From positions 16,453-80,452 of the forward strand of contig JBEQAR010000001.1 of the NCBI GenBank assembly GCA_041640295.1: a stretch of 64,000 nt of DNA, written 5' to 3'. Of this stretch, positions 1,298 to 59,135 are shown piece after piece (position 1 is the stretch's first letter; each line of letters starts with the position of its first letter). Origin of the DNA: a bacterium. Its GTDB lineage: Bacteria > Patescibacteriota > Minisyncoccia > UBA6257 > HR35. The translations under genes were made by a program, and so were the position numbers. The notes beneath the pieces are model-generated. The model worked only from the letters and a program-made list of their open reading frames with translations. It ran no database searches and was not told where the DNA came from.

Positions 1298-1348
1298 ATA
1301 ATTATTTTAAAATATAAAGGTTATAATTTATATAAATTTAAAAATTAT

Positions 1349-1434
1349 GCCCGGGTGGCGGAATTGGCAGACGCGTTGGGCTTAAAACCCAATGGCCTAA
1401 TTAGGCCGTGTGGGTTCGACTCCCACCCCGGGCA
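1349..1434 (+). tRNA. tRNA-Leu (anticodon TAA), class II with a long variable arm
   Basis: The acceptor stem GCCCGGG pairs with CCCGGGC, the anticodon loop is CTTAAAA and the T-arm is GGTTCGACTCC. No CCA is encoded. Confidence 0.85.
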
Positions 1435-1438
1435 AAAA

Positions 1439-1522
1439 CCAGGGGTGGCAGAGTGGTCAATTGCACCTGGCTGTAAACCAGGCGCCCTTGTGGCTGCGCA
1501 GGTTCGAATCCTGCCCCCTGGA
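1439..1522 (+). tRNA. tRNA-Tyr (anticodon GTA), class II
   Basis: The acceptor stem CCAGGGG pairs with CCCCTGG, the anticodon stem-loop is CCTGG-CTGTAAA-CCAGG, there is a long variable arm and the T-loop is GGTTCGAATCC. Confidence 0.85.
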
Positions 1523-1534
1523 ATCATTTTATTT

Positions 1535-1607
1535 GCCAGGGTAGCTCAGTGGTTAGAGCACCGCTCTGGTAATGCGGAGGTCGCGGGTTCAAATCCCGTC
1601 CCTGGCT
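1535..1607 (+). tRNA. tRNA-Thr (anticodon GGT)
   Basis: The acceptor stem GCCAGGG pairs with CCCTGGC, the D-arm is GCTCAGTGGTTAGAGC, the anticodon loop is CTGGTAA and the T-arm is GGGTTCAAATCCC. Confidence 0.85.
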
Positions 1608-1612
1608 AAAAA

Positions 1613-1701
1613 GGAGAGGTGGCCGAATGGTTAAGGCAAGGTCCTGCTAAGACCTGTCCGTCTAAAAAACGGACTTGTGGGTTCGAATCCCACCCTCTCC
1701 G
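1613..1701 (+). tRNA. tRNA-Ser (anticodon GCT), class II
   Basis: The acceptor stem GGAGAGG pairs with CCTCTCC, the anticodon loop is CTGCTAA, there is a long variable arm and the discriminator is G. Confidence 0.85.
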
Positions 1702-1751
1702 CATAAAATAATTTTTAGTTTGAGTGATTAACTTTAATTTAAAAATTCGAA

Positions 1752-1836
1752 GGAGGGGTGGCAGAACGGCTAATGCGCTGGTCTTGAAAACCAGTGGCCC
1801 TTAGTGGCCTTGTGGGTTCGAATCCCACCCCCTCCG
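1752..1836 (+). tRNA. tRNA-Ser (anticodon TGA), class II
   Basis: The acceptor stem GGAGGGG pairs with CCCCTCC, the anticodon stem-loop is CTGGT-CTTGAAA-ACCAG and there is a long variable arm. Confidence 0.85.
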
Positions 1837-1962
1837 CTATTTTCATCTATCTTTTAATAGAAAAATTTTTTGATGAGATAATTAAAAATAATCTTCTGTA
1901 ATTATGTAGTTAGTTTACTTTTACTATTAAAATTTTTAATTTATATACCGATTAATAATTTG

Positions 1963-2034
1963 TGGACTGAGGGGGATTCGAACCCCCGACCTCTGCTTTG
2001 CGATAGCAGCGCTCTACCACTGAGCTATCAGCCC
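1963..2034 (-). tRNA. tRNA-Ala (anticodon CGC)
   Basis: The reverse complement gives GGGCTGATAGCTCAGTGGTAGAGCGCTGCTATCGCAAAGCAG...TCAGTCCA, with the G3:U70 Ala identity pair, anticodon loop ATCGCAA and T-arm GGGGGTTCGAATCCCCC. Confidence 0.8.
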
Positions 2035-24730: not shown

Positions 24731-27349
24731 TTATCTTGTTGTAGAATTTTGGGTTGCGGATAATATCTTGATTTCTATTTCATTACTTTTTCTTCCATCA
24801 TCACTTAAAAGGAGTAATTTATATTCGCCTGGTAAAATTATAGTTAATGCAAAGCAGATAGAGTCAGATGGATTAAAAGAATAACATCTAGCAACTGATC
24901 GAGGAAATGAAGATATTTCTATAGTATTATTATCTATAACTTTGAAATTATCTATATAACCACTATAAACACTAATAGTATCCGGTGAATTAGAATATTT
25001 TCCTTTTACCTCTATAACTAATCTATTAGCTGTTTTGAAATTTTCTCCTTTAATTATTACCTTATCACCAGGAAGAATTGCTTGTGGGTCTATAGAAAAT
25101 ATCTTTAATTCTTTAACATTATACATCAAATCGGGTTTAAGATCCCCTCTTTTACCAAAATTATTTAAGACAATCCTAAGATCTTTATCATCAATTTTAT
25201 TATCTAAGTTTAAATCATATCTTATCCCATTTTCTTTTAGAACATCTTGACCAAAATTAAAGGTAATATTCAAAATATCGCTATCATTAATAACATCATC
25301 ATTATTAGTATCACCATTAGTGAGATATATTTTATCAGTATAATTAAGAGAAATAATTTTCCTAAAATGACTTAAAAAATGAGGAAATTGAAAACTAACT
25401 GCAGGATCAGAGCATTTAGGAATCTCTATTGAGCCCTCATAACTACGATTAGCTAAATTAACATTAATTCTTTTTTGATTATAAATAGTATTTCCACAAT
25501 AAGTAGTAATAGTTCCTTCAGTAATTACATTTTTAGCAGTATCAGCTATATCATTAAAGTAAAGAACAAAATTATAATTTTCAAAAGTTCCTACTTCGTC
25601 ATCATAAATTTCAAATTCAACTCTATTACTTTCTTTATTATAAGCATTAATTACAAAGATTTCATATTTTCCTACAAATTGTTCTTTAAACCATTTATAT
25701 CTACTAGTTTCATCAAAGAAAGCTTGTGGTTCACCTTGTGTAAGAAGACAAATTATTGGGTTATTAATATCATAATCAGTAATACTACAACTAGTCATAT
25801 TAAGAGCATTCAAAGCTGTAACATAGATTTTATCATAAACACCTATAAGATCATTGATTGGCGGTGTTTTGCCAGTGCTAGCTATAAAATCAAAAGTTCT
25901 TTGATTATCTTTTTTAACAAACCTTAATATATTTTGTTGCGTAAAACCAGTACCTTCTAATGTTAAACTTGTTATAGGCATATTACCCATAAAGCTTTTT
26001 AGTGATATTCTTTTAGGATAATAATTATCTATTCTAGGTATAATATTTAAATCTTCCTGACATTCTTCATATTCTTTGTTTACCATTATTTGAATTATTT
26101 TTAATGTTTCACCAGAAACTATACCATTAGCTGGTAATTGATAAAATCTTTGAAATTTTTTAACTGCTCCCTCGGTTAATCTTCCAAAATAACCAGTTAT
26201 TAACCTCTCGGGATAAAATCCTTTATTAGTTAAAATTAATTGAAAAAGATAAACTTCATTTCTACGATCACCTCTTTTCATTTCTGGTAAATCACAAGAT
26301 ACTTCAGGACTACCAGGTAATTCATCAAGAATTATTGTTCTTTTAGATTTTGGAGTTTCTTTATTAACAATCTTAAAATAAGCTGAATCAAAATAACCAC
26401 CTATAAAATAATTATTCTCTAAAGTTGGCTTATAATGTCTAATATCTAAATCATAATATTTTTCAAGTAAATATAAAGGGAAAACTGAAAACCTGATTCG
26501 GTAATTACCATTTTGAATATATTCAGGTATAGTCCAATCATAAGATCGTTTAAAAATCGGAACTTTGGCAATATGAGTTACATACCCTCTATCAGAAACT
26601 AAATCAAGAGAAAGGGTTTGAATAGGAAGATAAAAATAAGTTTGATTTTCTGTAGGAAAAACTGAATATTGATCAGAACCACCTCCTTGAGGAATATAAT
26701 TTTGAGATGATGTGCTTGAAATCTGATGACGAGGTGCTTCTAAAATACTACTAGTTGATTCGCTTTCAACTTGAGGATTTCTACCAGACATTGGTTGAGC
26801 TACATATTCCCATTCAATAGTGTAAGTTTGACCGACATACCAAGTATCATTAGCTTTAGGAGAAAGTACAGTTAAAGAAAAATTATTTCTCGGCGAATAC
26901 AATAAATCAGTTTCTTGTGGTCCTACTGTTGTTTCCGCTCTTTCTGGTAATTTTGATCCTCCCGCTGATGTTTCTGCTGGTGTTCTTAATTCTCTTCCTT
27001 TTGTTTCTTGAGTAAATAGAGGAGAAAGAAGACTTAAGATCACCTCAATAGTTTTTTTATCTAATTTTCCAGTTGTAGGTAAATCAAATCTTTTTTGAAA
27101 TTCTTTTAAGGCTTGAACTGTTTGATTATCAATTTGACCTGTAATTTTTAAATCTTTCTTATTCAAAGTTTCTCTTAATAATTCTTGAACAAAACGAATG
27201 TCATTAACAGTTGGTTGCTTTTCTAATTTTAATTTTAATTGATTAACATCGGTAATTTTTTTGGTTGGCGTTGAAGTTTGCGCAAAACTTAAATTAAAAA
27301 CTATAATAGAGATCAATAAAAATATATAAATCTTAATAAAACTTTTCAT
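24731..27349 (-). CDS. Large secreted protein with two peptidoglycan-binding (PG_binding_1-like) domains and a dockerin-type calcium-binding repeat pair
   Basis: The 872-aa product has a signal peptide (SFA-QT). PGBD-like segments are VNDIRFVQELL...ALKEFQKRFDLPTTGKLD and VYLFQLILTNKGFYP...VKKFQRFYQLPANGIV. Dockerin-like repeats are GDTNNDDVINDSDILNITFNFG and DLNLDNKIDDKDLRIVLNNFG. Confidence 0.55.
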   Translation of the reverse strand: MKSFIKIYIFLLISIIVFNLSFAQTSTPTKKITDVNQLKLKLEKQPTVNDIRFVQELLRETLNKKDLKITGQIDNQTVQALKEFQKRFDLPTTGKLDKKTIEVILSLLSPLFTQETKGRELRTPAETSAGGSKLPERAETTVGPQETDLLYSPRNNFSLTVLSPKANDTWYVGQTYTIEWEYVAQPMSGRNPQVESESTSSILEAPRHQISSTSSQNYIPQGGGSDQYSVFPTENQTYFYLPIQTLSLDLVSDRGYVTHIAKVPIFKRSYDWTIPEYIQNGNYRIRFSVFPLYLLEKYYDLDIRHYKPTLENNYFIGGYFDSAYFKIVNKETPKSKRTIILDELPGSPEVSCDLPEMKRGDRRNEVYLFQLILTNKGFYPERLITGYFGRLTEGAVKKFQRFYQLPANGIVSGETLKIIQIMVNKEYEECQEDLNIIPRIDNYYPKRISLKSFMGNMPITSLTLEGTGFTQQNILRFVKKDNQRTFDFIASTGKTPPINDLIGVYDKIYVTALNALNMTSCSITDYDINNPIICLLTQGEPQAFFDETSRYKWFKEQFVGKYEIFVINAYNKESNRVEFEIYDDEVGTFENYNFVLYFNDIADTAKNVITEGTITTYCGNTIYNQKRINVNLANRSYEGSIEIPKCSDPAVSFQFPHFLSHFRKIISLNYTDKIYLTNGDTNNDDVINDSDILNITFNFGQDVLKENGIRYDLNLDNKIDDKDLRIVLNNFGKRGDLKPDLMYNVKELKIFSIDPQAILPGDKVIIKGENFKTANRLVIEVKGKYSNSPDTISVYSGYIDNFKVIDNNTIEISSFPRSVARCYSFNPSDSICFALTIILPGEYKLLLLSDDGRKSNEIEIKILSATQNSTTR

Positions 27350-30188: not shown

Positions 30189-30194
30189 TTTATT

Positions 30195-31335: not shown

Positions 31336-31337
31336 TT

Positions 31338-31886: not shown

Positions 31887-31887
31887 T

Positions 31888-32196
31888 TTAATTAAAAAGT
31901 TCCTTACACTTTTTACACCTTCTAAATTTTTGATCATTACTTATTTCATAACCGACCCGAGTTGGTTTCTTGCATTTAGGACAAATTAATTTAACCTTAC
32001 TCACATAAAGAGGTTGGGGAATACTAACAATTTGACCTTTTTCACCACTTCTCTTTGGTCGCAAATGTTTTTTAACCAAATTTAAACCTTCAACAATTAC
32101 TTTATTTTCCTTTGGTAAAGCTTTGATCACTTTTCCTGTTCTTCCCTTATCTTTACCACTAATTATTAAAACGGTATCACCTTTTTTAATTTTCAT
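31888..32196 (-). CDS. rplX: 50S ribosomal protein L24 with a Cys4 zinc-ribbon C-terminus
   Basis: The KOW N-terminus MKIKKGDTVLIISGKDKGRTGKVI is followed by the C-terminus CPKCKKPTRVGYEISNDQKFRRCKKCKELFN. Confidence 0.85.
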   Translation of the reverse strand: MKIKKGDTVLIISGKDKGRTGKVIKALPKENKVIVEGLNLVKKHLRPKRSGEKGQIVSIPQPLYVSKVKLICPKCKKPTRVGYEISNDQKFRRCKKCKELFN

Positions 32197-32200
32197 TTTT

Positions 32201-32569
32201 TTAAACTAATTCTCTTGCCATACTTGCAATTTTCTCAAATTTTTTTTCTTTAATTTCTCTTGGTATTGGACCGAAAATTCTATTACCAATTGGATCGTCT
32301 TTTGTTCTTACAACAACAGCTGCATTTTCATCAAATCTAATCCAAGTACCATTTTTTCTCAAATAGGGTTTTCTTTGTCTAACAACAACTGCTTTTACTA
32401 CTTGCCCTTTTTTAATTTGCTTACCTGGTTCAGCTTCTTTTACTGAACAAACAATAATATCACCAATTTGAGCATACTTTCTATTACCAATACCAACAAA
32501 ACCAATACACATTAATTTAATTGCTCCACTATTATCAGCTGCTTTTAATATTGTTCTCGGTTGAATCAT
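32201..32569 (-). CDS. rplN: 50S ribosomal protein L14
   Basis: MIQPRTILKAADNSGAIKLMCIGFVG is canonical L14. Confidence 0.95.
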   Translation of the reverse strand: MIQPRTILKAADNSGAIKLMCIGFVGIGNRKYAQIGDIIVCSVKEAEPGKQIKKGQVVKAVVVRQRKPYLRKNGTWIRFDENAAVVVRTKDDPIGNRIFGPIPREIKEKKFEKIASMARELV

Positions 32570-32825
32570 TGTTATTATTTAAAACTTTAACTAATCGCCA
32601 CCTTTTTAATTTTGAAATTGGACGAACATATTCAATTAAAACAGTATCACCTTCTTTTGCTATTTCTCGCTCATCATGGGCATAATATTTCGTTCTATGT
32701 TTCAAATATTTCTTATACAAAGGATGTTGTTTAATAGTTTCTGATAAAACAACAATTGTTTTTTGCATTTTGGTTGATATTACTTTCCCGATTACTCTTT
32801 TTCTAACCATTTCTCTGTTTTTCAT
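32535..32825 (-). CDS. rpsQ: 30S ribosomal protein S17
   Basis: RVIGKVISTKMQKTIVVLSETIKQHPLYKKYLKHRTKYYAHDE is the S17 OB fold, followed by an unusual N/S-rich C-terminal tail. The true start is probably the internal Met at about 32810. Confidence 0.8.
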   Translation of the reverse strand: MKNREMVRKRVIGKVISTKMQKTIVVLSETIKQHPLYKKYLKHRTKYYAHDEREIAKEGDTVLIEYVRPISKLKRWRLVKVLNNNNDSTENNIKSS

Positions 32826-32997
32826 TAATAACCGTTAATATCCGCGCAATATTTTTTTTAGTTAATTTTAATAAATGTGGTTTGTTTAATTTTTTTAATG
32901 ATTTTTCTATCTTTAAATTAAACAATTTTTTTCTTTCTTCGGCTAATAATTTAAATAATTCTGATAAAGATTTTAATCTCAATTCTTTAGCTTTCAT
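32803..32997 (-). CDS. rpmC: 50S ribosomal protein L29
   Basis: The 64-aa helical product begins MKAKELRLKSLSELFKLLAEERKKLFNLKIEKS, which is the L29 pattern. It lies between rplP and rpsQ. Confidence 0.8.
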   Translation of the reverse strand: MKAKELRLKSLSELFKLLAEERKKLFNLKIEKSLKKLNKPHLLKLTKKNIARILTVINEKQRNG

Positions 32998-33406
32998 CTT
33001 TTTTAATAATTTTTACCTTAATTGGTAATTTACATCCAGCTGATTTTAAAGCTTCAAAAGCTAAATCTTCAGATAAAGTATAAACTTCAAAAAGAATATT
33101 ACCAGCCTTAACTAAGGTAGCATAATGATCAATATCTCCTTTACCTCCACCCATTCTCACACCCTCTGGTTTTTTAGTTCTTGTTAAATGAGGAAAAATT
33201 TTTAACCATACTCTCCCTTTCTTACCTAAAATTCTTTTCAATTCTTTTAAAGCTGCTTCGATTTGTTTATCTTTTAAATATTTGGTTTCCAAACTTTTTA
33301 AACCATAATTACCAAAATCTAAATCAATATTAGCAGTTGCTATTGCCCTTTTTAACCTTCTACCCTTCATCCATTTACGATGTTTTAACTTTCTTGGCTG
33401 AAGCAT
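32987..33406 (-). CDS. rplP: 50S ribosomal protein L16
   Basis: MLQPRKLKHRKWMKGR ... GRVWLKIFPH ... RMGGGKGDIDHY is canonical L16. Confidence 0.9.
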   Translation of the reverse strand: MLQPRKLKHRKWMKGRRLKRAIATANIDLDFGNYGLKSLETKYLKDKQIEAALKELKRILGKKGRVWLKIFPHLTRTKKPEGVRMGGGKGDIDHYATLVKAGNILFEVYTLSEDLAFEALKSAGCKLPIKVKIIKKDES

Positions 33407-34080
33407 TATTCCTCTTTATAATCTTTACTTTCGCCCTTATACAACCAAACTTTAATTCCTATTATTCCATATTTAGTTAAAGCCTCAACGAAAGCATAAT
33501 CTATTTTAGCTTTAAATGTTGATAAAGGTAATTTCCCCCATGACAATGTTTCTGTTCTGTGAATAGTAGCACCATTAATTCTTCCAGAAATTTTAATTTT
33601 TATTCCTTGAATTTCTTTATGTTGTCTAGCTTTTTCTATTATTTTTTTCATCACTCCTCTTGCTGGTTTATTTTTTTCAATATCAATAGCTGCTAATTGA
33701 GCCAAATAGCTTGCATAAAGTGTTGGTTTTTTTACTTCTTCAACAGAAATTTCTAAAGCTGGTTGAGGAAGATTGTTCTTTTTAAACAAAGGATCCAATT
33801 TTTTAACAATTTCTTCTTGTAATCTTTTTAACTTCTGCCCTTCTCTACCTATTAAATTACCAGGTTTAGCTGATCTTAAAATTACTCGGCAATGCTCTTG
33901 ATCCTTCCTTTCAATAATAACTTCAATAACATCTCCTTTTTTAATTCGTTCATTAATTATTTTTCTAATCAAATAATCAGCCTCAAGAAATATTCTAAAA
34001 TTTCTTTTGAAAAACCATTTTGATTTCCAATACTCATTAATCCCTAATCGATTAGCATAAGGTGAAACTTTATGACCCAT
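33406..34080 (-). CDS. rpsC: 30S ribosomal protein S3
   Basis: MGHKVSPYANRLGINEYWKSKWF is followed by a KH domain and an S3 C-domain. Confidence 0.9.
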   Translation of the reverse strand: MGHKVSPYANRLGINEYWKSKWFFKRNFRIFLEADYLIRKIINERIKKGDVIEVIIERKDQEHCRVILRSAKPGNLIGREGQKLKRLQEEIVKKLDPLFKKNNLPQPALEISVEEVKKPTLYASYLAQLAAIDIEKNKPARGVMKKIIEKARQHKEIQGIKIKISGRINGATIHRTETLSWGKLPLSTFKAKIDYAFVEALTKYGIIGIKVWLYKGESKDYKEE

Positions 34081-34408
34081 TTTTTTTATCTAATTCCAAA
34101 GCAATATGAGAAGTTCGTTTAATAATTCGACCGACATGACCTCTTGACATTGCTCGATATCGTTTTTGTTTTGGTCCTTCATTAACGATAATGTTTTTAA
34201 TAACTAAATTCTCTTTTTTTAATTGTTTTTGTTTTTCAGCAACATCAATTCCGTGTTTTAATAATTTTAACAAACTTTTTGCTGCTCTTTTAGGCGATAA
34301 GATTAATTGTTTCTCAGCATTTACCACTTCTAAGCCTTTAATCATATTAGCTACCATTCTTACTTTTCTTGGTGAAATATTTAAATAACGTAAATGAACC
34401 TTAATCAT
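34070..34408 (-). CDS. rplV: 50S ribosomal protein L22
   Basis: The 112-aa product includes ISPRKVRMVANMIKG and the hairpin-forming YRAMSRGHVGRIIKRTSH. Confidence 0.85.
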   Translation of the reverse strand: MIKVHLRYLNISPRKVRMVANMIKGLEVVNAEKQLILSPKRAAKSLLKLLKHGIDVAEKQKQLKKENLVIKNIIVNEGPKQKRYRAMSRGHVGRIIKRTSHIALELDKKNGS

Positions 34409-34425
34409 TTTTTAAAAATTAATTT

Positions 34426-34737
34426 TTATTTTTGTAAGGCTTGTTTTTTCTCTAACTCTCTTTGTAATTTTCCACCATGTTTAAGAAACTTTCTTGTCGG
34501 AGCAAATTCTCCTAAACGATGACCCACCATATCTTCAATCACCTTAAATTTTATAAACTGTTTACCATTATAGACTTCAAAAACCATTCCCACCATTTCC
34601 GGTATAATAATTGAATCCCGTGACCAAGTTTTAATTGGATATTTATCCCTTTCTTCTATTGGCAACTGAAGCAACTTTTTAACTTTCTTAAGTAATTTTT
34701 CATTAACATATGGTCCTTTTTTTAAACTTCGTGACAT
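34426..34737 (-). CDS. rpsS: 30S ribosomal protein S19; start placed at the internal Met [10 protein letters not shown]
   Basis: [19 protein letters not shown] ... [13 protein letters not shown] is canonical S19. The 7-codon upstream extension in the ORF track overlaps the rplB stop. Confidence 0.9.
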
Positions 34738-34738
34738 T

Positions 34739-35575
34739 TTATTTTCTTCTCTTGGCAATTAATTTAGAATAAGGATTTCTTTTTCTTCTTGTTTTTCGAC
34801 CACCAGTAATTTTACCCCACTTTGTTTTTGGTCTTCTTGTTCCTCGGGGAGCGCGACCTTCACCTCCACCATAAGGATGATCGCGTGGATTCATAGCGCT
34901 TCCTCTAACATTTGGTCGAAAACCTTTCCAAATTTTTCTTCCTGCTTTTCCTAATCTGATATTACGATGATTAACATTTGATACTCTTCCTACAGTAGCA
35001 TAACACTCTTTAGATACTTTTCTAATTTCACTAGATGGCATTTTAAGAGTAGCATATTTTTCATCACAACCCATCATAATAGCTGCTGAACCGGCTGAAC
35101 GAACTAATTTACCTTTTCCTTTAGGAACTAATTCAATTTCATAAATTTCTGTACCTGGTGGAATATTTTTTAAAGGCAACCGATTGCCAATTTTTATTGG
35201 CGCTGATTCAGAACAAATTATTTCATCTCCAACCTTTATTCCTTCAGGAGCTAAATGATACCTTCTTTCTCCATCTCGATAACAAACAAGCATAATAAAA
35301 GCACTCCGATTAGGATCATATTCAATTGTTTCCACTTTAGCTAAAATATCTTTTTTATCTAAACGAGAAAAATCTATTAATCGATAAAGTCTTCGATGCA
35401 CTGGATTTTTCCTAAAGCGAGTAGTTATCCTTCCTTGATTATTCCTTGCTGTTCTTTTTTTTAAAGAAATCAAAAGTGGCTTATATGGTTCATCAGTAGT
35501 TAAAACTTTTTTATAATCAACAAGAATAGTTACTCTCTTTCCTGGTCCTCTTGATTTAATAATTTTTAATGACAT
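34739..35575 (-). CDS. rplB: 50S ribosomal protein L2
   Basis: The 278-aa product includes canonical L2 motifs ([10 protein letters not shown] and [30 protein letters not shown]). Confidence 0.95.
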
Positions 35576-35673
35576 AATAAAAATTGCTTTTAATTAATTT
35601 CCTCGACAACTGATTTTTAGAAAAATTAAATTAAATTATATCAAAAAAATAATTGAAATCAAAATTATATTAT

Positions 35674-35748
35674 CGGGGGAGGTAGGATTCGAACCTACAA
35701 CCTCTGGTTTTGGAGACCAGCGCTCTACCAATTAGGAGCTACTCCCCC
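35674..35748 (-). tRNA. tRNA-Trp (anticodon CCA)
   Basis: The reverse complement gives GGGGGAGTAGCTCCTAATTGGTAGAGCGCTGGT-CTCCAAA-ACCAG...GTAGGTTCGAATCCTACCTCCCCCG. The discriminator is G. Confidence 0.8.
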
Positions 35749-35766
35749 TTATTAAAAATTATAACA

Positions 35767-37203
35767 TTAAATATCAGAATTTTGACTATTTTTTTTATTA
35801 ATTTCTATTTTTATTCCTAATTCATCTAATTGTTCTTTTTTTACTTCATCAGGTGCAAGCATCATTAAATCTCTACCTTCACCAGTCTTAGGAAAAGCAA
35901 TAACTTCTCTAATATTAGGTTCATTTTCTAAAACCATAATTATCCTATCTAAACCAGGAGCAATACCTCCATGAGGCGGTACGCCATAATCAAAAGCTTT
36001 CAACAAGTGACCAAATTTTTTATATATCTCCTCTTCTTGATGACCTAATACTTTAAATACTTCTATTAAAATATCTTTATCGGTTGTTCTAATACTACCC
36101 CCACCTATTTCATAACCATTACAAACAAAATCGTATTGTTCACTAATTAAATCTAAGGGTGAAGATTTTAATTTTGCAATTATTTTATCTTTATTAAAAT
36201 TACCCTCAGTTAATTTGGGTTGGGTAAAAGGATGGTGCATTGGATTCAGTGTTCCATCTTCTAAAATCTCAAACATTGGAAAATCAACAATAAAACAAAA
36301 AGCTAATTCGTCTTTATCTTCTTTATTTTTTCTTAAATCCGGTTTATCAGTCTTAAAATTTTGTATTACTTCTTGGTAGCTTAGGCGGGGAAATGGGATT
36401 TGGGTAATTCTTTTGTGAGGATATAAATTTCTAACCAATTCAATAAATAATTCTTCAATAAGATTTAAAATATCATCACGACTAACAAAGCTCATTTCTA
36501 AATCAAGTTGAGTAAATTCTGGTTGTCGATCACCACGAGGATCTTCATCGCGAAAACAACGAGCAATTTGGAAATATTTTTCAATTCCTGCTACCATCAA
36601 AAGTTGTTTATATTGTTGAGGTGATTGAGGAAGAGCATAAAATTTACCCTTATGAAGCCTAGATGGTACTAAATAATCTCTTGCCCCCTCTGGTGTTGAT
36701 TTGGTTAAAATTGGTGTTTCGATTTCAATAAAGCCTCTTTGGGCTAACCAATTTCTAATAAATAAAATCACTCGATGTCTGTTCGTTAAATTTTTTTGCA
36801 ATCTTTCTCTTCTTAAATCAAGATAGCGATATTTTAATCTTATTTCTTCATTAATTTCATAACCATCGCTGTCGATAGGTAGTGGTAAAATTTGAGCTTC
36901 AGATAAAACTTCTATTCCATCAACAATTAACTCTATTTCGCCAGTTAAAATTTTTGGATTAATTAATTTCTCTTCCCTTTTTTTGATTAAACCCTCAACT
37001 TTAATAACAAATTCTTCTCTTAATTCCTTCGCTATTTGCCAAGAGGAAGAACTTTGCAGAACTACACATTGAATAATCCCACTTCTATCTCTTAAATCAA
37101 AAAAAATTATCTTCCCATGCGAACGAATTGAATGAATCCAACCAAAAAGTTCAACCCGTTCGCCAACTTTATCCCTCGTTTCCAAAATATCTATTTTTTT
37201 CAT
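35767..37203 (-). CDS. aspS: Aspartyl-tRNA synthetase, short form lacking the bacterial GAD insertion (archaeal/eukaryal-like architecture)
   Basis: The 478-aa product has an N-terminal OB anticodon-binding domain and class II motifs, including QSPQQYKQLLMVAG and FRDEDPRGDRQPEFTQLDLEMSF. Confidence 0.85.
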   Translation of the reverse strand: MKKIDILETRDKVGERVELFGWIHSIRSHGKIIFFDLRDRSGIIQCVVLQSSSSWQIAKELREEFVIKVEGLIKKREEKLINPKILTGEIELIVDGIEVLSEAQILPLPIDSDGYEINEEIRLKYRYLDLRRERLQKNLTNRHRVILFIRNWLAQRGFIEIETPILTKSTPEGARDYLVPSRLHKGKFYALPQSPQQYKQLLMVAGIEKYFQIARCFRDEDPRGDRQPEFTQLDLEMSFVSRDDILNLIEELFIELVRNLYPHKRITQIPFPRLSYQEVIQNFKTDKPDLRKNKEDKDELAFCFIVDFPMFEILEDGTLNPMHHPFTQPKLTEGNFNKDKIIAKLKSSPLDLISEQYDFVCNGYEIGGGSIRTTDKDILIEVFKVLGHQEEEIYKKFGHLLKAFDYGVPPHGGIAPGLDRIIMVLENEPNIREVIAFPKTGEGRDLMMLAPDEVKKEQLDELGIKIEINKKNSQNSDI

Positions 37204-38422: not shown

Positions 38423-41023
38423 CTAAAATTTGATATTTCCACGATCATCAACATTAAAATTTTTAACTCTTATTTTTCCTTCTAAATCAACCTCTCTTGT
38501 TGAATAATAGTAATAAGGATCTTTATTGATAAACCAAATTATAAATTTCTTTATATTTTGATTATCAATTCTATCACCTTCTACCCTTACAAGATTAAAA
38601 GCAACAGAATAAGAGGAATTTTTATTTAATTTCTCTAATAGAATTAACGGAATATTTATTTTTTTGCCTGGCTCTATATTTTTACCTAATAAAATATTTT
38701 TAATTTGATCAAATGGAATTTTTGCTATAGTATTCTTGTTAGAATCTTCTATTATAATATCTTTAATTTTCCAACTACCAAAGAACTCCTCAATTTTTTT
38801 TAAAGTATGATTATCTATTATGATTTTATCTCTACCTATGTTTTCAAAATAAATATCAAAAGAATTATTATTTAAATTTTTTTCAAAATCTATATTACCT
38901 ATTTCTTCATCAGCCAAATAAGCATAATATTTAAAATCAGGATTACATTCTGAAGATTCCCATTCAGCATATGATTCTACTAATAAATTATTTTTTTTAA
39001 GATTTCCTCTGTAAAAATTCTTATCTTTATCCATTAAAATCAAATCAGTTATTTCTATTGAAAGTTCTCCACCTTTATTATTAGGCTTATAATAAATTTG
39101 CATTACATCAACATCTTTATCTATAAAAATTGGTTGATCTAATTTGTACCAATATATTCCATCTCTCTCTTCAACTAAAGATAAAGTTGAACTGCCTACT
39201 GTTTCATAATCATAAAAAGGGCCGCAGGCATATGTTGGTTTTATTAAATTTTGAAAATATTTTCCAATATTACCTTCTCTTTTCAGAAACTCTATTTTGA
39301 ATTCTTTTATTAAATCAATATTATTAATATTAAAACCAATATAAACTAACAAAAACTTATCAGAAATTTTGATAACCGTTCCAATATAAGAGAAAAAATG
39401 ACTCTCTACACCCAAAATAGGATATTCATATTCTTTAGGTTTGTCTAATCCCCTTTTGTAAGCTTGAGAATATTTAGGAATTAATAAAAATTTTTTCTGA
39501 GTTACTTCATCTGTGTATTGATTAATACTATAATATTCACTATGCGGAGAATTAGGAAGATAAGCATAGCATAAATGAATAGTTACTTTATCTGTAGTTT
39601 TTAAATTTTTAATTGAAACGAAATCAATAATTTTATCGGCTAATGTTTTTTCAAAAATTAATTCTTCATCACTCCAATAAATTTCTGGCACTCTAATTTC
39701 TATTTTATTATATTTATAAGCTATTAAAGCTTCTTTTTCATTTAAAGCTTTTTTATAAATTCTTATACCATCTATATAACCAACAAAAGTTGATTCAATA
39801 TTTAAATTTGTTCCTCCAATTTGTAAATCACCTGGTTTCGCTATTTCTGTCCAATATTGAGAAACATTATCAATATCATTATCTTTTTTTTCTCCATTAA
39901 TATAAAAATTCACTTCTTTAGTTTTGAAATTCCAAGTAACGATTATATGATTCCATTCATTATCTTTTAAAGGATCAAAAATTAAGTTGTAATTTTTTTT
40001 AGGTGCTTGAGCAGGATAAAAATATAAATTACCATCAGGATCAATACCTAATTCGATGTTCCATTTACTATCAATAACTAATCTTTGGTATTTACCATTT
40101 TTTCTCTCAATTGGTTTGACCCATAACTCAATACTTCCTTCATTACCATTAATAGCTGATTCCTGATTTTCTTTTTGTAATATTTGGAAATAGGCGTCAT
40201 TAATATCCGTATAACCCTCTCTCTTATTCCAGTTATCAAAAAAAATAAAACATCTATTATGATGTTGGCAATTTATTAATAAATTTTGGGCAGATTGATA
40301 AATACTTAGTACTCCAAAAAATTCACTTTTGTAATTATTTCCAGTTAAATCTTCGAAATTTAATTTATATACATATTCTCCCAAGTATTTTTGGTCTGGT
40401 GTGAATAATTCGTCAGAAAATAAAAATTTTGGTTTATTAAGAATATACCAAATATCAGGTTGTGGTAATAAACTTTCACTATAATCAAAAGTTTTATTAT
40501 ATTGATTTTGTTTAATGCCAATTTTATTTTCTATTAAACTATTTATATTATTATTACTATAGTAAACAAAAACAGATTTCTTTTGATAAGGTTTTATTAT
40601 AGGAATCTCCAACAAAATTTCTGTAGTTTTATCAGTACATTTATTCAAAATTTTATATTTGATTTCCAAATTAAGATCAGGATCAATAAATTTTAAATTA
40701 TTACAATTAAAATCTAATTTACCACTTCTGACTAAAGACAAAGTGTCGAAACTGGTAAGAATTGGAAAATTTTTAAGGGAATCGTCGTTGTTTAAATTAA
40801 AAGAAAATTTACGACTATACAACTTATCAGATAAGAGATTATTATTTACATTTTCTGTTTTTTTTATTTGAAAATTAGAAATAATATTTTGTAATGAATT
40901 ATTATTACTGAAAAACTTATAAAATCCAAAAATTAAGCCAACTAAAAAAAGAAATAAAAGAATAACTATTAAAAATTTGTATTTCAACTTAAAATTTAAT
41001 AAATTAAACTTTTGAAATAACAT
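38423..41023 (-). CDS. Hypothetical membrane-anchored protein with a concanavalin-A/LamG-like lectin domain
   Basis: The 866-aa product has an N-terminal TM. The segment IELWVKPIERKNG...IIVTWNFKTKEVNFYINGEK...FVGYIDGIRIYKKAL has the LamG/Laminin-G jelly-roll pattern. Confidence 0.5.
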   Translation of the reverse strand: MLFQKFNLLNFKLKYKFLIVILLFLFLVGLIFGFYKFFSNNNSLQNIISNFQIKKTENVNNNLLSDKLYSRKFSFNLNNDDSLKNFPILTSFDTLSLVRSGKLDFNCNNLKFIDPDLNLEIKYKILNKCTDKTTEILLEIPIIKPYQKKSVFVYYSNNNINSLIENKIGIKQNQYNKTFDYSESLLPQPDIWYILNKPKFLFSDELFTPDQKYLGEYVYKLNFEDLTGNNYKSEFFGVLSIYQSAQNLLINCQHHNRCFIFFDNWNKREGYTDINDAYFQILQKENQESAINGNEGSIELWVKPIERKNGKYQRLVIDSKWNIELGIDPDGNLYFYPAQAPKKNYNLIFDPLKDNEWNHIIVTWNFKTKEVNFYINGEKKDNDIDNVSQYWTEIAKPGDLQIGGTNLNIESTFVGYIDGIRIYKKALNEKEALIAYKYNKIEIRVPEIYWSDEELIFEKTLADKIIDFVSIKNLKTTDKVTIHLCYAYLPNSPHSEYYSINQYTDEVTQKKFLLIPKYSQAYKRGLDKPKEYEYPILGVESHFFSYIGTVIKISDKFLLVYIGFNINNIDLIKEFKIEFLKREGNIGKYFQNLIKPTYACGPFYDYETVGSSTLSLVEERDGIYWYKLDQPIFIDKDVDVMQIYYKPNNKGGELSIEITDLILMDKDKNFYRGNLKKNNLLVESYAEWESSECNPDFKYYAYLADEEIGNIDFEKNLNNNSFDIYFENIGRDKIIIDNHTLKKIEEFFGSWKIKDIIIEDSNKNTIAKIPFDQIKNILLGKNIEPGKKINIPLILLEKLNKNSSYSVAFNLVRVEGDRIDNQNIKKFIIWFINKDPYYYYSTREVDLEGKIRVKNFNVDDRGNIKF

Positions 41024-47154: not shown

Positions 47155-48495
47155 CTATTCTAAATTAATTTCTTCGTTGATTTTGGGTATTTCAGTTTTA
47201 ATCCCCAAATAATCTTCAAGACGAATTTTTAATTGAATTTTTGCTTTTTCATCGCCTTGAACTAAAAATACAGTTTTTAATCTTTTTCTTTGAGGACTAA
47301 CCCAATCAATAATTCCTTCTTGATCTTTATGACCTGAATAACTTAATAATTTTTCTATCTTAGCCTTAACTAAATATTTCTCACCATCTAAAGAAATATT
47401 TTTCACCCCCTCTAAAATTTCTCTTCCTAAAGATCCTTCTGGCTGATAACCAACAAATAAAATTGTCGTTAATGGCTTATCAATAAAATATTTTAAGATA
47501 TTAATAATTTTTCCACCCTTAAGCATTCCAGAGCTGGAAATAATAATTTTAGGATTAGGATAATCAACAATTTTTTTAATATCATTTTCTTCCACAATAT
47601 GTAAATAGGACAAATTTTCGTAATTTCTACGAATAAAAAAATTTTTTGCCTGCTCATTAAGAAAATCATAATACTTTTCGTAAATTCTTAAAATTCTAAT
47701 TCCCAAAGGAGTATCAAGAAAAATATTTATTTCTGGCACGCGTTTTTCTTCAACTAAAGAAATTAAATCATATAAAACTTCTTGACTTCTTTCCAAAGCG
47801 AAGGCTGGTATAATCAAGGTTCTTTTTTCTCTTAAGGTTTCTTCAACAATATCTTCTAAAATATCTTTTCGGTTCATTAAATCTTGATGAAGACGATCAC
47901 CATAAGTAGATTCTAAAACTAAATAATCTGCTTCGGGTAAGGGATCAGTTTCTCTTAAAAGTGGATCAATATTACCTAAATCGCCAGAAAAAATTAATAT
48001 TTTATTATCTCCTTTCACCTGAATAAATGCTGAACCTAAAATATGGCCGGCATCAAAGAACACTATTTCTAAATTATTAAAAGACAATTTTTCATAATAA
48101 TTAACTGTTCGCCATCTTTGAAAAACTTTTTTAATGTTTTCTTCTGTAACAAAATTATCTTTACCCAAAAAATGGCAATTTTCATTAATTACTTTTTGAG
48201 AGTCCAATAAAATTTCTTGAGCTAAATCTTTTGTAGGTAAAGTACTATAAATATAACCATTAAAACCCTCAGATAACAATTTAGGCAAACGACCAATATG
48301 GTCTAAATGAGAATGAGTAATTAATACAAAATCTATTTCTTTAGCCTGATAAATAAACGGTTCGAAATTTTCTAACTCACAAACATTTCTTCCTTGAATT
48401 AATCCGCAATCAACTAAAAATTTAGTATTATTAACTTCAACTAAATAATTAGCACCAGTTACCCTTTCTGCCCCTCCGCAAAATTTTATTTTCAT
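47155..48495 (-). CDS. MBL-fold beta-CASP family ribonuclease
   Basis: The MBL motif ITHSHLDHIGRLP is followed by a beta-CASP insertion and a C-terminal His motif. The 446-aa size is typical of the CPSF/Ysh1-like bacterial family. Confidence 0.75.
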   Translation of the reverse strand: MKIKFCGGAERVTGANYLVEVNNTKFLVDCGLIQGRNVCELENFEPFIYQAKEIDFVLITHSHLDHIGRLPKLLSEGFNGYIYSTLPTKDLAQEILLDSQKVINENCHFLGKDNFVTEENIKKVFQRWRTVNYYEKLSFNNLEIVFFDAGHILGSAFIQVKGDNKILIFSGDLGNIDPLLRETDPLPEADYLVLESTYGDRLHQDLMNRKDILEDIVEETLREKRTLIIPAFALERSQEVLYDLISLVEEKRVPEINIFLDTPLGIRILRIYEKYYDFLNEQAKNFFIRRNYENLSYLHIVEENDIKKIVDYPNPKIIISSSGMLKGGKIINILKYFIDKPLTTILFVGYQPEGSLGREILEGVKNISLDGEKYLVKAKIEKLLSYSGHKDQEGIIDWVSPQRKRLKTVFLVQGDEKAKIQLKIRLEDYLGIKTEIPKINEEINLE

Positions 48496-52801: not shown

Positions 52802-52818
52802 GTACTGAGATAACCCCC

Positions 52819-53097
52819 CTAAGGGGGTGGCTGGGATGGTGAGGGTGGTGGGGACGGGGGTTGGGGGTGGTAGTCCTGGTTACGGACCACCACCCGGTTC
52901 TCCTGGGCAGTCGTGCTTACAGTGATACTACCCAACTGACCCCGCTGCCAGCCACCCTCAACCAACTCGGCACTCTTTTGGAGAGCGCCGAGAGAATCGA
53001 AAGAGTTGGAGGGGGGGCGGCTGCGACGGCCCGCCATAATAAGGGCAGCAATTGCCGCTGTCCCAGACGCCCCCGCTAAAATCCAAAGAATTTCCAT
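52819..53097 (-). CDS. Small high-GC gene: N-terminal TM anchor plus Pro-rich C-terminus (92 aa)
   Basis: The ATG at 53097 is preceded by GGAGGTG 7 nt upstream. The product is MEILWILAGASGTAAIAALIMAGRR...PQPPSPPPSPSQPPP. GC content is far above the window average. Confidence 0.5.
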   Translation of the reverse strand: MEILWILAGASGTAAIAALIMAGRRSRPPSNSFDSLGALQKSAELVEGGWQRGQLGSITVSTTAQENRVVVRNQDYHPQPPSPPPSPSQPPP

Positions 53098-53189: not shown

Positions 53190-53582
53190 TTACTCCTCTT
53201 CCCTGGCCATCAGGCCCAGAAGGAGTAACAACCCGAATACCTCGGCGGCGAGAATGCCGGCGAGGACGCCGGGCAGGGGGTCGCCCGGGTCCCCTTTTGG
53301 ACCCGGCGGACCCTCAGGTCCTCTTGGCCCTTGCGGGCCAAAAGGACCAGCAGGTCCTCTTGGCCCTTGCGGGCCACGAGGGCCCCTCAATTTCTCCCGA
53401 ACCTCCTTGTCCGGGAGAACTAGTTTATCCCACTCCGCATCCTGCGGAGTGGTCCCGCCTCTCTCAATGCGGGCGGGGAGGACAATGGTTCCCTCGGCCC
53501 CCTTCTTCTCCTGAGCCAGGGCGACCGAGAAAGAAGTGAGAAGAAAAAGACCACTAAGGCCCAGGATTAAAATTAACCTCAT
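53190..53582 (-). CDS. Collagen-like (G-P-X)n repeat surface protein with a signal peptide and C-terminal TM anchor, high-GC
   Basis: The start is placed at the ATG at 53582, which has GGAGGTG 6 nt upstream; the ORF track starts at the GTG at 53591. The product has a signal peptide ([11 protein letters not shown]), 11 uninterrupted Gly-X-Y triplets ([33 protein letters not shown]) and a C-terminal hydrophobic helix. Confidence 0.6.
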
Positions 53583-53601
53583 ATAGTTCACCTCCGTTTT
53601 A

Positions 53602-53868: not shown

Positions 53869-54099
53869 TTAGCCCCATACTTTTCTCCAAAAATCTTTTT
53901 CTTCAATTTGAGCTAATTTTAGTATTCCTTTTATAGTTCCAGGGGCTAATTCTTTATGAAGGGGAACTATTGTTATAATCTCTTGTTTATCAACTTGCTT
54001 TTTTAATTTCACATGGCTACCTTTTTGAGAAATAAAATAAAAACCAAAATTTTTACACAAAATCTTAATCACTTGCCTTCCCGAGAGTGGCTTATACAT
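53869..54099 (-). CDS. hicA: HicA-family mRNA interferase toxin
   Basis: The 76-aa product (SGRQVIKILCKNFGFYFISQKGSHVKL...TIVPLHKELAPGTIKGILKLAQI) matches the HicA dsRBD-like fold and the conserved GSH motif. Confidence 0.75.
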   Translation of the reverse strand: MYKPLSGRQVIKILCKNFGFYFISQKGSHVKLKKQVDKQEIITIVPLHKELAPGTIKGILKLAQIEEKDFWRKVWG

Positions 54100-54310
54100 T
54101 CTCTAATTCAAGAGTAGTTATCAAAGGAGCATTTTTAGGAAGAGATTTTTTGATTTTTGGTTGATCTTCTAAATATAATTCAACAGCCTCTTTAAGGTTT
54201 TTTTGAGCATCCTCAATTGTTTTTCCTTGACTTACTACACCTAATTCAATACATCTAGCTACATACCATCTTCCTTCTTTAATAATAATTGTGGTGAACC
54301 GATAGGCCAT
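54092..54310 (-). CDS. hicB: HicB-family antitoxin (RNase H-like fold, no DNA-binding extension)
   Basis: The 72-aa product YRFTTIIIKEGRWYVARCIELGVVSQGKTIEDAQKNLKEAVELYLE matches the HicB/UPF0150 core. It overlaps hicA by 8 nt. Confidence 0.7.
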   Translation of the reverse strand: MAYRFTTIIIKEGRWYVARCIELGVVSQGKTIEDAQKNLKEAVELYLEDQPKIKKSLPKNAPLITTLELENV

Positions 54311-54691: not shown

Positions 54692-54982
54692 TTACATCTC
54701 TTCTATTTCTCTTTTGAGTTCAAGTTCTTTTATTCTGTCTTCAAAAACTTTTTTAAGTGAAGATAATTCTTTATGAGTTGAAAGAAGTTCTTCGAGATAT
54801 TTATTTAGGCTTTCTAATCTACCTAAGGAAATATCAACGGCTTCTTCAAAAAATGTCCCAACTATTGCTCTTTGTAAATCTTCGGGAAATTCATTAAAAT
54901 TTTCGGTTATAAAATTTCTAATTTCCTCTTCTGTTCCTGTTTTAAGAATTTCATAAAATTTTGTTAAAATTTCTTCTGTCAT
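54692..54982 (-). CDS. Hypothetical acidic helical protein (96 aa)
   Basis: ORF only; no recognisable motif. Confidence 0.35.
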   Translation of the reverse strand: MTEEILTKFYEILKTGTEEEIRNFITENFNEFPEDLQRAIVGTFFEEAVDISLGRLESLNKYLEELLSTHKELSSLKKVFEDRIKELELKREIEEM

Positions 54983-54989: not shown

Positions 54990-55211
54990 TTATTTATTTT
55001 GCAAAAAACTATCTAAATTTTGAGAAATTATATTTAAAATGTAAGTTAATAAACCGCCGCATTTTGCCCGCGTTCTTTTATTTTTGTACCAATCTTTAAA
55101 TTCATCTTTGTATTTCTTTCTTAGGTACCGAGCTTGTATTTCTTCCCATTTTATTCCTTCCTCCTGTAAAAATTCATTCCATTCTTTTTCTAGTTTTGAT
55201 TGATCTTCCAC
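54990..55211 (-). CDS. Hypothetical basic protein (73 aa from a GTG start); it lies in the same frame as the upstream 257-aa ORF
   Basis: The ORF is in-frame with 55311..56084, with only the TAG at 55311-55313 between them. The 99-nt segment after that TAG (55212-55310) is also an open reading frame. Confidence 0.3.
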   Translation of the reverse strand: MEDQSKLEKEWNEFLQEEGIKWEEIQARYLRKKYKDEFKDWYKNKRTRAKCGGLLTYILNIISQNLDSFLQNK

Positions 55212-55310
55212 CTCTTCTAATATACCGCCTGCTTCCTTAAAAGAAATATTTTTTCCCGAATCTGCGATTCCGTATAATATATCTGAAAGAAGTTCCCTTC
55301 CTCTTTCGTT

Positions 55311-56084
55311 CTAACTTGCAAACACTGCTTCAGCTATCATTTTTCCAATTTCTTGTAGGTTATTATCTATTTCCGCTAACTTTGTTTGAACTTCTTCAAT
55401 TCTATCTAATTGTTCTGCTCTTCCTCTACTAAATCTCCCCCCGAACATATCTCTTAATTTACCAATTATACCAAGATGAGCTCTTACCAATTCTTGAAGA
55501 TTACCTCCTGAAGCATAAACTCTACTTAATTCTTCTATTGGTATGTTGTACTCTTGAGCTAATGCTCTTACCTGGGCATTAAGACTTTCATATGTTTGTT
55601 CTTCTTTTTTAATATTTTCTAATTTCTCTCTTAATTCCTTGAAATTATCTTGATTCAACATATACAATTCTGCTAAATAATTTTCCAAAAATGTTCTTGT
55701 TTTCTCAACTCCTATTTGATTTACAATTTGCCTAAATTCAGGTGATATAGAAGCAAGATATTCAATTCGCTCTTTGGGCAATAAATCTAAAACTTCTTTT
55801 GTAGCATCTAAACACTCTTTAATTTTTGATCTTGCTTGTTCTAAAAAATCAAATTCTGCCTTTTCTAAGGTTTGCCTATTGAGCAATTTTTCTAGTAATT
55901 TATCTTTATCTATTCCTTGAGGAAGTTGGGTGGTTTCGATATATATCTTTAATAAATTCGATTGAAGTCTGTCGCTTAAAATCTCTTCAACCGTAGGTGG
56001 AATTCCACTAGTGCTTTCTCTATATGCTTCAACTTTTTGTTGTTCTTGCTTCTTTCGATATTGTTCAAAGGGTTTTTCTAACAT
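55311..56084 (-). CDS. Hypothetical coiled-coil protein translationally coupled to rpmG
   Basis: The 257-aa helical product has its ATG at 56084, 4 nt after the rpmG stop. Its own stop is a TAG. Confidence 0.45.
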   Translation of the reverse strand: MLEKPFEQYRKKQEQQKVEAYRESTSGIPPTVEEILSDRLQSNLLKIYIETTQLPQGIDKDKLLEKLLNRQTLEKAEFDFLEQARSKIKECLDATKEVLDLLPKERIEYLASISPEFRQIVNQIGVEKTRTFLENYLAELYMLNQDNFKELREKLENIKKEEQTYESLNAQVRALAQEYNIPIEELSRVYASGGNLQELVRAHLGIIGKLRDMFGGRFSRGRAEQLDRIEEVQTKLAEIDNNLQEIGKMIAEAVFAS

Positions 56085-56087: not shown

Positions 56088-56249
56088 TTATTTTCTGCTT
56101 TCTTTGTGTTTGGTGTGCTTGGCACACCATTTGCAGAATTTTTTTAATTCTAATTTTTTTTCTGAACCTTTTTTCTTCCAATAATAATAGTTAGCTCGAT
56201 TGCATTCAGTGCATTTAAGTCTAATTAAATTTTTGGTTTTTACTGCCAT
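56088..56249 (-). CDS. rpmG: 50S ribosomal protein L33, zinc-ribbon form (53 aa); not in the ORF track
   Basis: The reverse-complement ORF encodes MAVKTKNLIRLKCTECNRANYYYWKKKGSEKKLELKKFCKWCAKHTKHKESRK, with the CxxC...CxxC pair and the L33 consensus. Confidence 0.8.
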   Translation of the reverse strand: MAVKTKNLIRLKCTECNRANYYYWKKKGSEKKLELKKFCKWCAKHTKHKESRK

Positions 56250-56789: not shown

Positions 56790-59135
56790 TCAGTTAATTA
56801 ATACTGAATCAATCTTGAAAGAAACAATCTTAATTGGTTGATTGGTTCTTTTTATTTCTTTAATATCTTTAACATTAATAAATTCTAATTTTTCATTCAC
56901 CACTATAATTTTATCATCATTATTTACTAAGTCAACAAATATTGGCAATCCAAATTTTTCTTTTAAATCAAATATTTTAATACCCCTTCCGCCTCTTTTT
57001 TGAAAATTAATTTCTTTAACTGGAAATTTTTTAGCATAACCTTCAGAAAAAATAATTAAAACATAATTTTTATCAACAAGAGAGGCATTAATAACCTCAT
57101 CACCACTTGCAATTTTTATTAACCTTACCCCTGATGAAGCTCGTCCTTGAAGAGGAATTTCATCTTTAATACCCAAAGCCAAACCATTACGAGTAAAAAT
57201 TATTAATTGTTGGTTATTGTTAATTGGTAAAATTTTCACTAATTGATCGTGTTGTTTAATTTTTATTATTTGGGTACCAGTTTTCCTATTGGTTAAAACA
57301 TCAGAAGCTTTTATTCTCTTCCCTAAACCGAAACGAGTAAGGCATAAAAAGAAATTATTGTTCGTTAATCTTAATACATCCAAAATGTGTTCATCTTTCT
57401 CTAAAGAAATTGTTGATTCTAAATATTTTTGTGATTCATAAAATTCAATTACAGGAATATTGTAAACTTTTCCTTTATGTGAATAAACTAAAATTTTTTC
57501 CTTGGTGTTAGTAAGTAAAATTTTTCCAAACTCTTCTCGGTTTTTAATAATTTTTGCCAAAGGAGTATCTAATTTAAATGATTTAACTAATTTCTTTTGA
57601 TTAATAAAAAGTAAAATATCTTCATCGATAATTTCTTTTTCTTCTCTAACAACAATTAAATCTTCTTCAATAATTTTGGTTCGGCGCTCATCACCATATT
57701 TTTTAATTAAATCATCAATATCTTTGATTATTAATTCATCAATTTTTTTAGGATATTTAAGAATCATCTCTAATTCTGCTTTTAGTTTTAATTTTTCATT
57801 CAATTCATCAATTATCTTTTTTGTTTCTAAAGAAGTTAATGATCTTAAAGGCATTTCTAAAATAGCTTCTGCTTGACGTTCATTAATTTTCAACTTAAGC
57901 ATTAAATTCTTTTTAGCAGTTTGTTTATCTTGTGATTTTTTAATTATTCTAATAACTAAATCGATATTTTGAATTGCTTTTTTGAACCCTTCTAAAATTT
58001 CTATTCTCTCTTTGGTTTTTTCTAAATCATATTTAGTTCTTCTTCTAATAACCTCCCGACGATGCTGAAGCCAATTCAACAATATATCTTTCAAATTAAA
58101 AATTTTTGGTTGGAGTCCATTTTCTAAAGCTATAAGATTGAAGTAATAATTTTTTTGTAAATCAGTTAATCGATAAAGTTTATTAATGGTGTTTTGGATT
58201 AATTTTTCATCTTTATCAGCTAATTCAATAATAATTCTGATCCCTTCCCTATTTGATTCATCTCTAACTTCTTTAATTTGAGGAAGAATTTTGTTTAAAC
58301 CTAAGTCAGCAATTTGTCTAACTAATTCTGCCTTATTTACCTGCCAAGGAATTTCAGTAATCACTAAATATTTATTACCCCTTTTTGTTTCTTCAATTTG
58401 AACTTTTCCTCTAACAACTACACTTCCTTTACCGGTTTTATAAGCTTCTAATAAATTTTTTTTACCATAAACAAAACCACCGGTAGGAAAGTCTGGACCT
58501 TTAATAACTTGAAGAATATCTTTGATTGTTGACTCTGGTTTATTAATTAATAATTTAATAGCCTGCCCAACTTCAATTAAATTATGGGGAGGAATGTTGG
58601 TCGCCATTCCTACCGCAATTCCTAACGAGCCATTAACAATTAAGTTTGGTAATTTCGAGGGTAAAACAACTGGTTCTTTGCGGGTATTATCATAATTTGG
58701 TCTAAAATCAACAGTATCTTTATCAATATCAACCAACATCTCAACAGCGATATGAGACAATTTAGCTTCTGTATAACGATAAGCAGCGGGTGGATCACCA
58801 TCTAAAGAACCAAAATTTCCCTGCCCCCAAATAAGAGGATAACGTAAAGAAAAATTTTGAGCTAAACGAACTAAAGTTTCATAAACTGCTTGATCACCAT
58901 GAGGATGATAACGAGCAATAGTATTTCCTACAATATTAGCACATTTAGTAAATTTTTCATTTGGCCAAAGACCTAATTCTTTCATAACAAACAATATTCT
59001 TCTTTGAACTGGTTTTAAGCCATCACGAACATCGGGTAAAGCACGAGAAACTATAACACTTAAGGCATAATCTAAATAAGAATGCTTAAGCTCTTGAGTA
59101 ATTTCAGAAAATTTAATAATCTCTTTCATCCTCAA
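56790..59135 (-). CDS. gyrA: DNA gyrase subunit A (type IIA topoisomerase A subunit)
   Basis: The N-terminus reads [27 protein letters not shown], the active site is [11 protein letters not shown] and there is a C-terminal beta-pinwheel region. The [10 protein letters not shown] context favours GyrA over ParC. No gyrB is adjacent. Confidence 0.85.

Follow-up and report, generated by a model that had tools for sequence, protein, structure and literature searches.

In the 64,000-nt stretch of DNA analysed here (the window), a minus-strand open reading frame (ORF) ends with a TAG codon, and the same frame stays open beyond it and runs into a second, shorter ORF. The question raised by this locus is whether the TAG ends a gene or breaks one and, if it breaks one, whether it is a mutation, an error of the assembly or a codon that is read through. 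A first-pass annotation, made from the letters of the window alone, had offered a recent nonsense mutation (pseudogene), a sequencing error, and programmed readthrough or suppression as possible explanations. Comparison with other genomes favours the nonsense mutation, since at least 16 conspecific contigs have CAG in place of the TAG and each orthologue is a single ORF within a conserved gene order. The TAG is very probably a recent nonsense mutation in a single gene of 364 amino acids (aa), which makes the locus an ordinary young pseudogene or truncated allele.

Organization of the interrupted gene

The ORF at 55311..56084 (minus strand) has an ATG start and 257 codons, and ends with the TAG at 55313-55311. 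Past this codon the same frame contains 106 more open codons, followed by a TAA at 54990-54992, and the joined frame of 257 + 1 + 106 codons gives a conceptual product of 364 aa. Between the TAG and the listed 73-aa ORF the frame reads through NERGRELLSDILYGIADSGKNISFKEAGGILEEV. Re-reading of the minus strand bore out the layout described by the first-pass annotation, including its coordinates, its frame arithmetic and the linker peptide. The gene and its two direct neighbours are composed of the following features:

56088..56249, minus strand: rpmG (ribosomal protein L33, PF00471), located directly upstream, with its stop 3 nt ahead of the ATG of the gene; the neighbour relation is kept in the related contigs L004, L005, L007 and L087
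55314..56084, minus strand: the N-terminal 257 codons, whose product matches residues 1-257 of P0156, the intact protein of conspecifics, at 100% identity
55311..55313, minus strand: the premature TAG at codon 258; the derived base is at 55313, T on the coding strand versus C (CAG, Gln) in 15 other near-identical sequences
54990..55310, minus strand: the stranded C-terminal 106 codons and the original TAA, including the 73-aa GTG ORF (54990..55211); the DNA equals the intact allele except for one synonymous polymorphism in two other strains
54692..54982, minus strand: a 96-aa ORF, the downstream partner; homologues with 51-75% identity lie directly downstream in L004, L005 and L007

Only the N-terminal 257 codons are expected to be translated in the window strain. 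Regarding the open frame after the TAG, the 60 long ORFs of the window provide a comparison. Their post-stop frames usually close within 0-21 codons, and those that stay open for more than 100 codons coincide with the next listed ORF in the same frame. The expected probability of an open run of 106 codons at about 27% GC, estimated from base composition, is about 1e-4. The open extension after the TAG is not due to chance.

The GTG "start" of the 73-aa ORF corresponds to an internal Val codon, within ...EEVEDQ..., of the intact protein, and this ORF is an artefact of ORF listing. The earlier remark that the GTG has no clear SD is true; however, it is uninformative, because the real start of the gene and that of its downstream neighbour are also without SD.

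Orthologues and gene order

A search with the joined sequence identified two distant homologues of full length, P0003 (358 aa, 51% identity) and P0004 (368 aa, 49%), each covering both parts of the interrupted frame. The further members P0005 (363 aa, KatS3mg094_546), P0006 (356 aa) and P0007 (370 aa) are also single ORFs. The orthologues of related Parcubacteria are thus single ORFs of 356-370 aa, that is, one long protein and not two genes with independent starts. An exhaustive HMM search identified 294 family representatives at E<=1e-3, of which 188 have E<=1e-10. Among the best 150 of these 294 representatives, 138 have at least 343 aa, and for most the alignment spans almost all of the profile. 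All 62 members of the family alignment continue for 95-144 residues (median 106) beyond the column of the TAG. This column is a variable polar position, occupied by E (21 members), G (13), K (5), Q (4) and other residues, with three gaps and never a stop. Downstream of it, the positions that are invariant in the five closest relatives include S285, F286, A289, G290, W306, F332 and G346 (P0004 numbering).

A scan of genome contigs with the family alignment found no relative; the relatives were found instead by a GyrA scan and local tblastn, together with protein look-ups. The window has a GC content of about 27%, and its GyrA is 80%, 75% and 67% identical to those of the Patescibacteria/Parcubacteria MAGs SKYB72, KatS3mg094 and SRBZ-1.bins.49, respectively. 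Where the flanks suffice, the conserved gene order is gyrA, a 172-aa gene, rpmG, the interrupted gene, a gene of about 97 aa and a collagen-like gene. Family members found in matching gene order have 36-51% identity to the window protein and full-length profile matches. For L087, a 99-aa ORF is called at the position of the 96-aa partner gene, a correspondence of position only.

These comparisons indicate that the 257-aa ORF and the tail belong to one gene. The proposal that one TAG interrupts a single protein of about 365 aa agrees both with the intact alleles of the same species, described below, and with the single-ORF orthologues.

The predicted protein product

AlphaFold2, run with the 62-sequence alignment, produced an all-helical model with a pLDDT of 93.3 and a pTM of 0.84, and the helices encoded after the TAG score 85-98. 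According to this model the intact protein would be one folded unit. The TAG is located between the helix of residues 235-261 and the helix of residues 264-274, and the truncation removes five well-modelled helices. The lost segment corresponds to about 29% of the protein and includes family-conserved positions. From these positions and the five helices we infer that the 257-aa fragment has probably lost its function.

The protein is a lineage-restricted (Parcubacteria-specific) conserved hypothetical protein, adjoining rpmG and the partner of about 97 aa, and the window gene is a member of the uncharacterised Parcubacteria family that includes, for example, the hypothetical protein KatS3mg094_546. 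When the fragments and members of the family were scanned against Pfam and NCBIfam, no domain scored above the cut-off, and just sub-threshold coiled-coil noise appeared. Profile searches of the PDB returned only short, sub-significant matches, and Foldseek gave no significant fold match (best E 0.11, TM about 0.13). One JGI record labels a fragment of the family as "DNA polymerase III delta prime subunit"; that family was not returned by any of the family or structure searches run.

Origin of the TAG at codon 258

Near-identical contigs from other samples have CAG (Gln) at codon 258. By cluster look-up, at least 16 nearly identical contigs, which come from many samples, encode the intact 364-aa protein (P0156, with Gln258); their sources are NCBI (GCA_964468575.1 and GCA_900098825.1), ENA (ERZ27314177) and several Logan assemblies. 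In the alignment of 17 near-identical sequences (the window and 16 conspecific contigs), position 55313 is C in 15, and T is found only in the window and in L086. The latter contig, from the independent Logan assembly of SRR27869038, is identical to the window over 5660 nt, TAG included. It also shares three other private variants of the window, namely the length of the T run at 54480, a 13-nt block in the collagen-like gene (53358-53370), and the G6 state. The sense codon elsewhere, and the reproduction of the T together with linked private variants, argue that the TAG is a derived CAG-to-TAG (C-to-T) transition on a real haplotype. An exact-pattern scan of metagenome contigs with the sequence around the TAG returned no match.

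The window strain differs from its conspecifics at about 0.1% of sites or fewer, and its stranded tail has no further private change. The lesion is probably very recent, because the tail is undecayed. Among the first SNPs seen between strains in a 5.9-kb region, six of seven are GC-to-AT transitions, and one of these is a CAA-to-TAA nonsense change in hicA (Q25*) of L002. This spectrum fits the mutational bias expected in so AT-rich a genome.

We propose that the ancestral gene, in a low-GC genome of the Parcubacteria/Patescibacteria, encoded a 364-aa all-helical protein and was located between rpmG and the conserved 96-aa gene. In the window strain a C-to-T transition would have turned codon 258 from CAG (Gln) into TAG. 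Ribosomes would then stop at codon 258 and release a 257-aa fragment without the last five helices, and the remaining 106 codons would persist as an untranslated remnant. The locus resembles a strain-specific (unitary) nonsense pseudogene of a bacterial accessory gene in several respects. One transition accounts for the early stop; conspecifics, and orthologues with matching gene order, carry the intact allele; the stretch after the stop has kept its frame and shows no decay; and the genome is AT-rich, with regional SNPs that are mostly GC-to-AT transitions. It is unusual only in that several other, independent frameshifts are found among conspecifics.

Stop codon usage in the window

The 60 long ORFs of the window end with TAA in 49 cases, TGA in six and TAG in five. 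The RNase J-like gene at 47155..48495 has a complete RMMBL domain, followed by TAG and, directly after it, by a second stop. After two other TAGs, at distances of 1 and 8 codons, comes the ATG of a distinct gene that has Pfam domains of its own; one of these genes is a GH3 gene, and the other encodes a class II aminoacyl-tRNA synthetase. TAG is a real stop in this genome. A genome-wide reassignment of TAG was considered and rejected, as TAG terminates complete genes in the window. The first-pass annotation had already judged a global recoding unlikely, and the five TAG-terminated ORFs, the domain-complete RNase J-like gene among them, uphold that judgement. It had named a Pro-rich gene as its example of a TAG-terminated gene, which is correct for the ORF at 52819..53097; the other Pro-rich, collagen-like ORF (53190..53591) ends with TAA.

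Alternative explanations of the TAG

The TAG could be a sequencing or consensus error, in which case the true codon would be CAG and the gene unbroken. Every other conspecific assembly has C at the site, metagenome-assembled genomes can carry consensus errors, and the T may be a within-population variant picked by the assemblers, or a shared error if the window and L086 derive from the same run. However, consensus-level substitution errors are rare in short-read assemblies, and the independent assembly of SRR27869038 has the same T, together with the three other private variants of the window, over an identical 5.66 kb, as expected of a distinct haplotype. We consider an error very unlikely. 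The probability is lower still for a functional split gene, in which the 257-aa piece and a 73-aa (or longer) piece are both made and either assemble or act separately. Gene callers do annotate the two pieces separately, but the sole in-frame start after the TAG is the GTG at the internal Val codon, 33 codons downstream, which has no ribosome-binding motif at a usable spacing, and none of the 62 aligned relatives is split there.

Under programmed readthrough or suppression, an amino acid such as Gln would be inserted at the TAG and the complete 364-aa protein would be made, possibly at a regulated level. The frame is fully open past the TAG and the tail is undamaged; a 106-codon tail without decay fits continued use as well as it fits a very recent lesion. 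In addition, the base after the TAG is A, which in E. coli is reported to make a comparatively weak termination context. In contrast to these points, the stop is absent from every orthologue compared and from every conspecific apart from L086, which has the same TAG haplotype. None of the nine tRNAs of the 64-kb window has a CUA anticodon, and the 126-nt stretch that begins just before the TAG and extends about 110 nt past it does not fold significantly better than its shuffles (z = -1.56). TAG terminates other genes in the window, and the frameshifts that break the same gene in other strains are beyond rescue by readthrough. Known cases of readthrough or reassignment (UAG as Gln or pyrrolysine) have in common with this locus an in-frame UAG followed by an open homologous frame. 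The window UAG differs from them in that it is not conserved, in the use of TAG as an ordinary terminator, in the suppressor tRNA and stimulatory RNA structure that were searched for in the window and not found, and in an ancestral codon that was a plain CAG. Of the explanations put forward at first, this is the one that we find hardest to credit.

Other lesions in the gene

Besides the nonsense mutation, other breaks of the gene are present in the species. Over the 1095 nt of the gene, the 17 near-identical sequences contain five lesions that inactivate it, one change that is synonymous and not a single missense change:

55930, minus strand: 1-bp deletion in a CCC run, after codon 52, in L001 (DRR082460)
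55508, minus strand: 1-bp deletion at codon 193, within CAGGAGG, in L100 and L101, with 199-aa products
55437..55442, minus strand: G6 to G7, codons Gly215-Gly216, in L002 (SRR22462154) and L003 (JGI 3300038392)
55437..55442, minus strand: G6 to G8, codons Gly215-Gly216, in L100 (SRR27730029) and L101 (SRR27730028)
55311..55313, minus strand: TAG at codon 258, in the window and L086
55071, minus strand: synonymous SNP, in L096 and L099

Both G7 and G8 shift the frame, and the G6 tract at 55437..55442 appears to be a mutational hot spot. The possibility that the deletion of L100 and L101 compensates for their expanded G tract was rejected, as -1 and +2 leave a net +1. The gene looks dispensable in the window species, because it is broken by different frameshifts in other conspecific populations.

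The neighbouring coding sequence, of about 4.2 kb, has one inactivating change, in hicA, and five of the six inactivating events are in the interrupted gene (binomial P about 0.002). A 20-kb control region, which contains the ribosomal protein operon, secY and other genes, was compared among seven near-identical contigs. Ten SNPs were found, five synonymous and five non-synonymous, and the single frameshift is in a LamG-domain gene of L102. This gene (38423..41023, minus strand, 866 aa) has a 1-bp deletion at 39448 in L102 (SRR34065980), which gives ORFs of 525 aa and 330 aa and is a further case of an accessory gene frameshifted in one strain.

The pattern of five lesions hints at recurrent inactivation and is no proof of selection. 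If inactivation is recurrent and either selected or phase-variable, the TAG would count among several adaptive knock-outs and would not be a product of neutral decay. Consistent with this are the five independent lesions within 1.1 kb, the G tract seen as G6, G7 and G8, and the single inactivating change in the surrounding 4.2 kb and single frameshift in the 20-kb control. However, the comparison sequence is largely essential (ribosomal proteins, gyrA, secY) and inactivation cannot persist there; therefore the enrichment may show dispensability alone. The counts are also small, several samples come from one SRA series and may be non-independent, and the intact allele is the commonest. In L100, besides, an intergenic G run close by is expanded too, which makes a technical or mutator effect possible. 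As regards phase variation, the locus shares with the contingency loci of host-adapted bacteria a coding poly-G tract that varies in length between populations, with a shift of frame; here the length variation is seen between assemblies. In contrast to those loci, the tract is short (six bases) and was not found in the orthologues, for which reason a conserved contingency tract was rejected. Unlike contingency switching, the TAG, a point mutation, and the two deletions in runs of 2-3 bases are not reversible by slippage. We regard recurrent, selected or phase-variable inactivation as a doubtful account of the locus, and the particular version in which selection, maybe aided by the slippage-prone G tract, has made the TAG one of at least five parallel knock-outs as rather unlikely. 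Were selected inactivation true, the conserved all-helical product would be conditionally costly, for example through an interaction with host cells or phages.

Variation at neighbouring loci

Several genes around the pseudogene also differ between strains or relatives. The collagen-like gene (53190..53591, minus strand) encodes a small membrane-anchored protein with G-P-x repeats and lies in a GC-rich island, with about 45% GC per kb versus about 27% in the genome. It keeps its position in the gene order of relatives (L007 10620-11237, L087 6583-6978). The 13-nt block at 53358-53370, present in the window and L086, copies a neighbouring repeat; L090, L091 and L095 have a 12-nt in-frame deletion, and several non-synonymous SNPs distinguish strains. 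A hicA/hicB toxin-antitoxin pair (53869..54310, minus strand) is located between the 96-aa gene and the collagen-like gene, and is absent at the corresponding position in KatS3mg094 (L007). The Pro-rich ORF at 52819..53097 (minus strand) has in the window a 9-nt in-frame deletion between CCCTT direct repeats, relative to L090, L093, L094 and L100. Just after the TAG of this ORF is a G6 run (52814-52819), which is G7 in L100 and G6 elsewhere.

In gyrA (56790..59135) all five SNPs among the near-identical strains are non-synonymous: H358Y, E490K and I638M in L001, A336V in L092 and R364I in L093. The listed start of gyrA is a TTG (MRMKE...); the gene probably begins at the ATG two codons further on, because the conspecific gene calls give 779 aa. 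Further away, L105 (SRR21619497), compared with window positions 23000-36000, represents a second lineage of the species, roughly 1% divergent. Its differences in the ribosomal protein operon are mostly synonymous. In the PG_binding_1 protein (24731..27349, 872 aa), the C-terminal 60 or so codons are hypervariable between L105 and the window, with densely spaced non-synonymous differences and indels. Six tRNA genes are clustered at 1348..2034, namely Leu-TAA, Tyr-GTA, Thr-GGT, Ser-GCT and Ser-TGA on the plus strand and Ala-CGC on the minus strand, all with standard anticodons.

Implications

For annotation, the 257-aa and 73-aa ORFs should be merged and flagged as one gene with an internal stop; neither is a separate protein or a candidate for recoding. 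The wider significance of the locus is small. It illustrates cleanly how stops arise by GC-to-AT mutation in a very AT-rich, reduced genome, by CAG to TAG in this gene and by CAA to TAA in an allele of the neighbouring hicA. Its only mildly interesting aspect is the cluster of knock-outs in a near-clonal species of uncultured Parcubacteria. Five different breaks of one gene in near-clonal populations could hint at which conserved hypothetical genes of these bacteria are dispensable or conditionally selected against.
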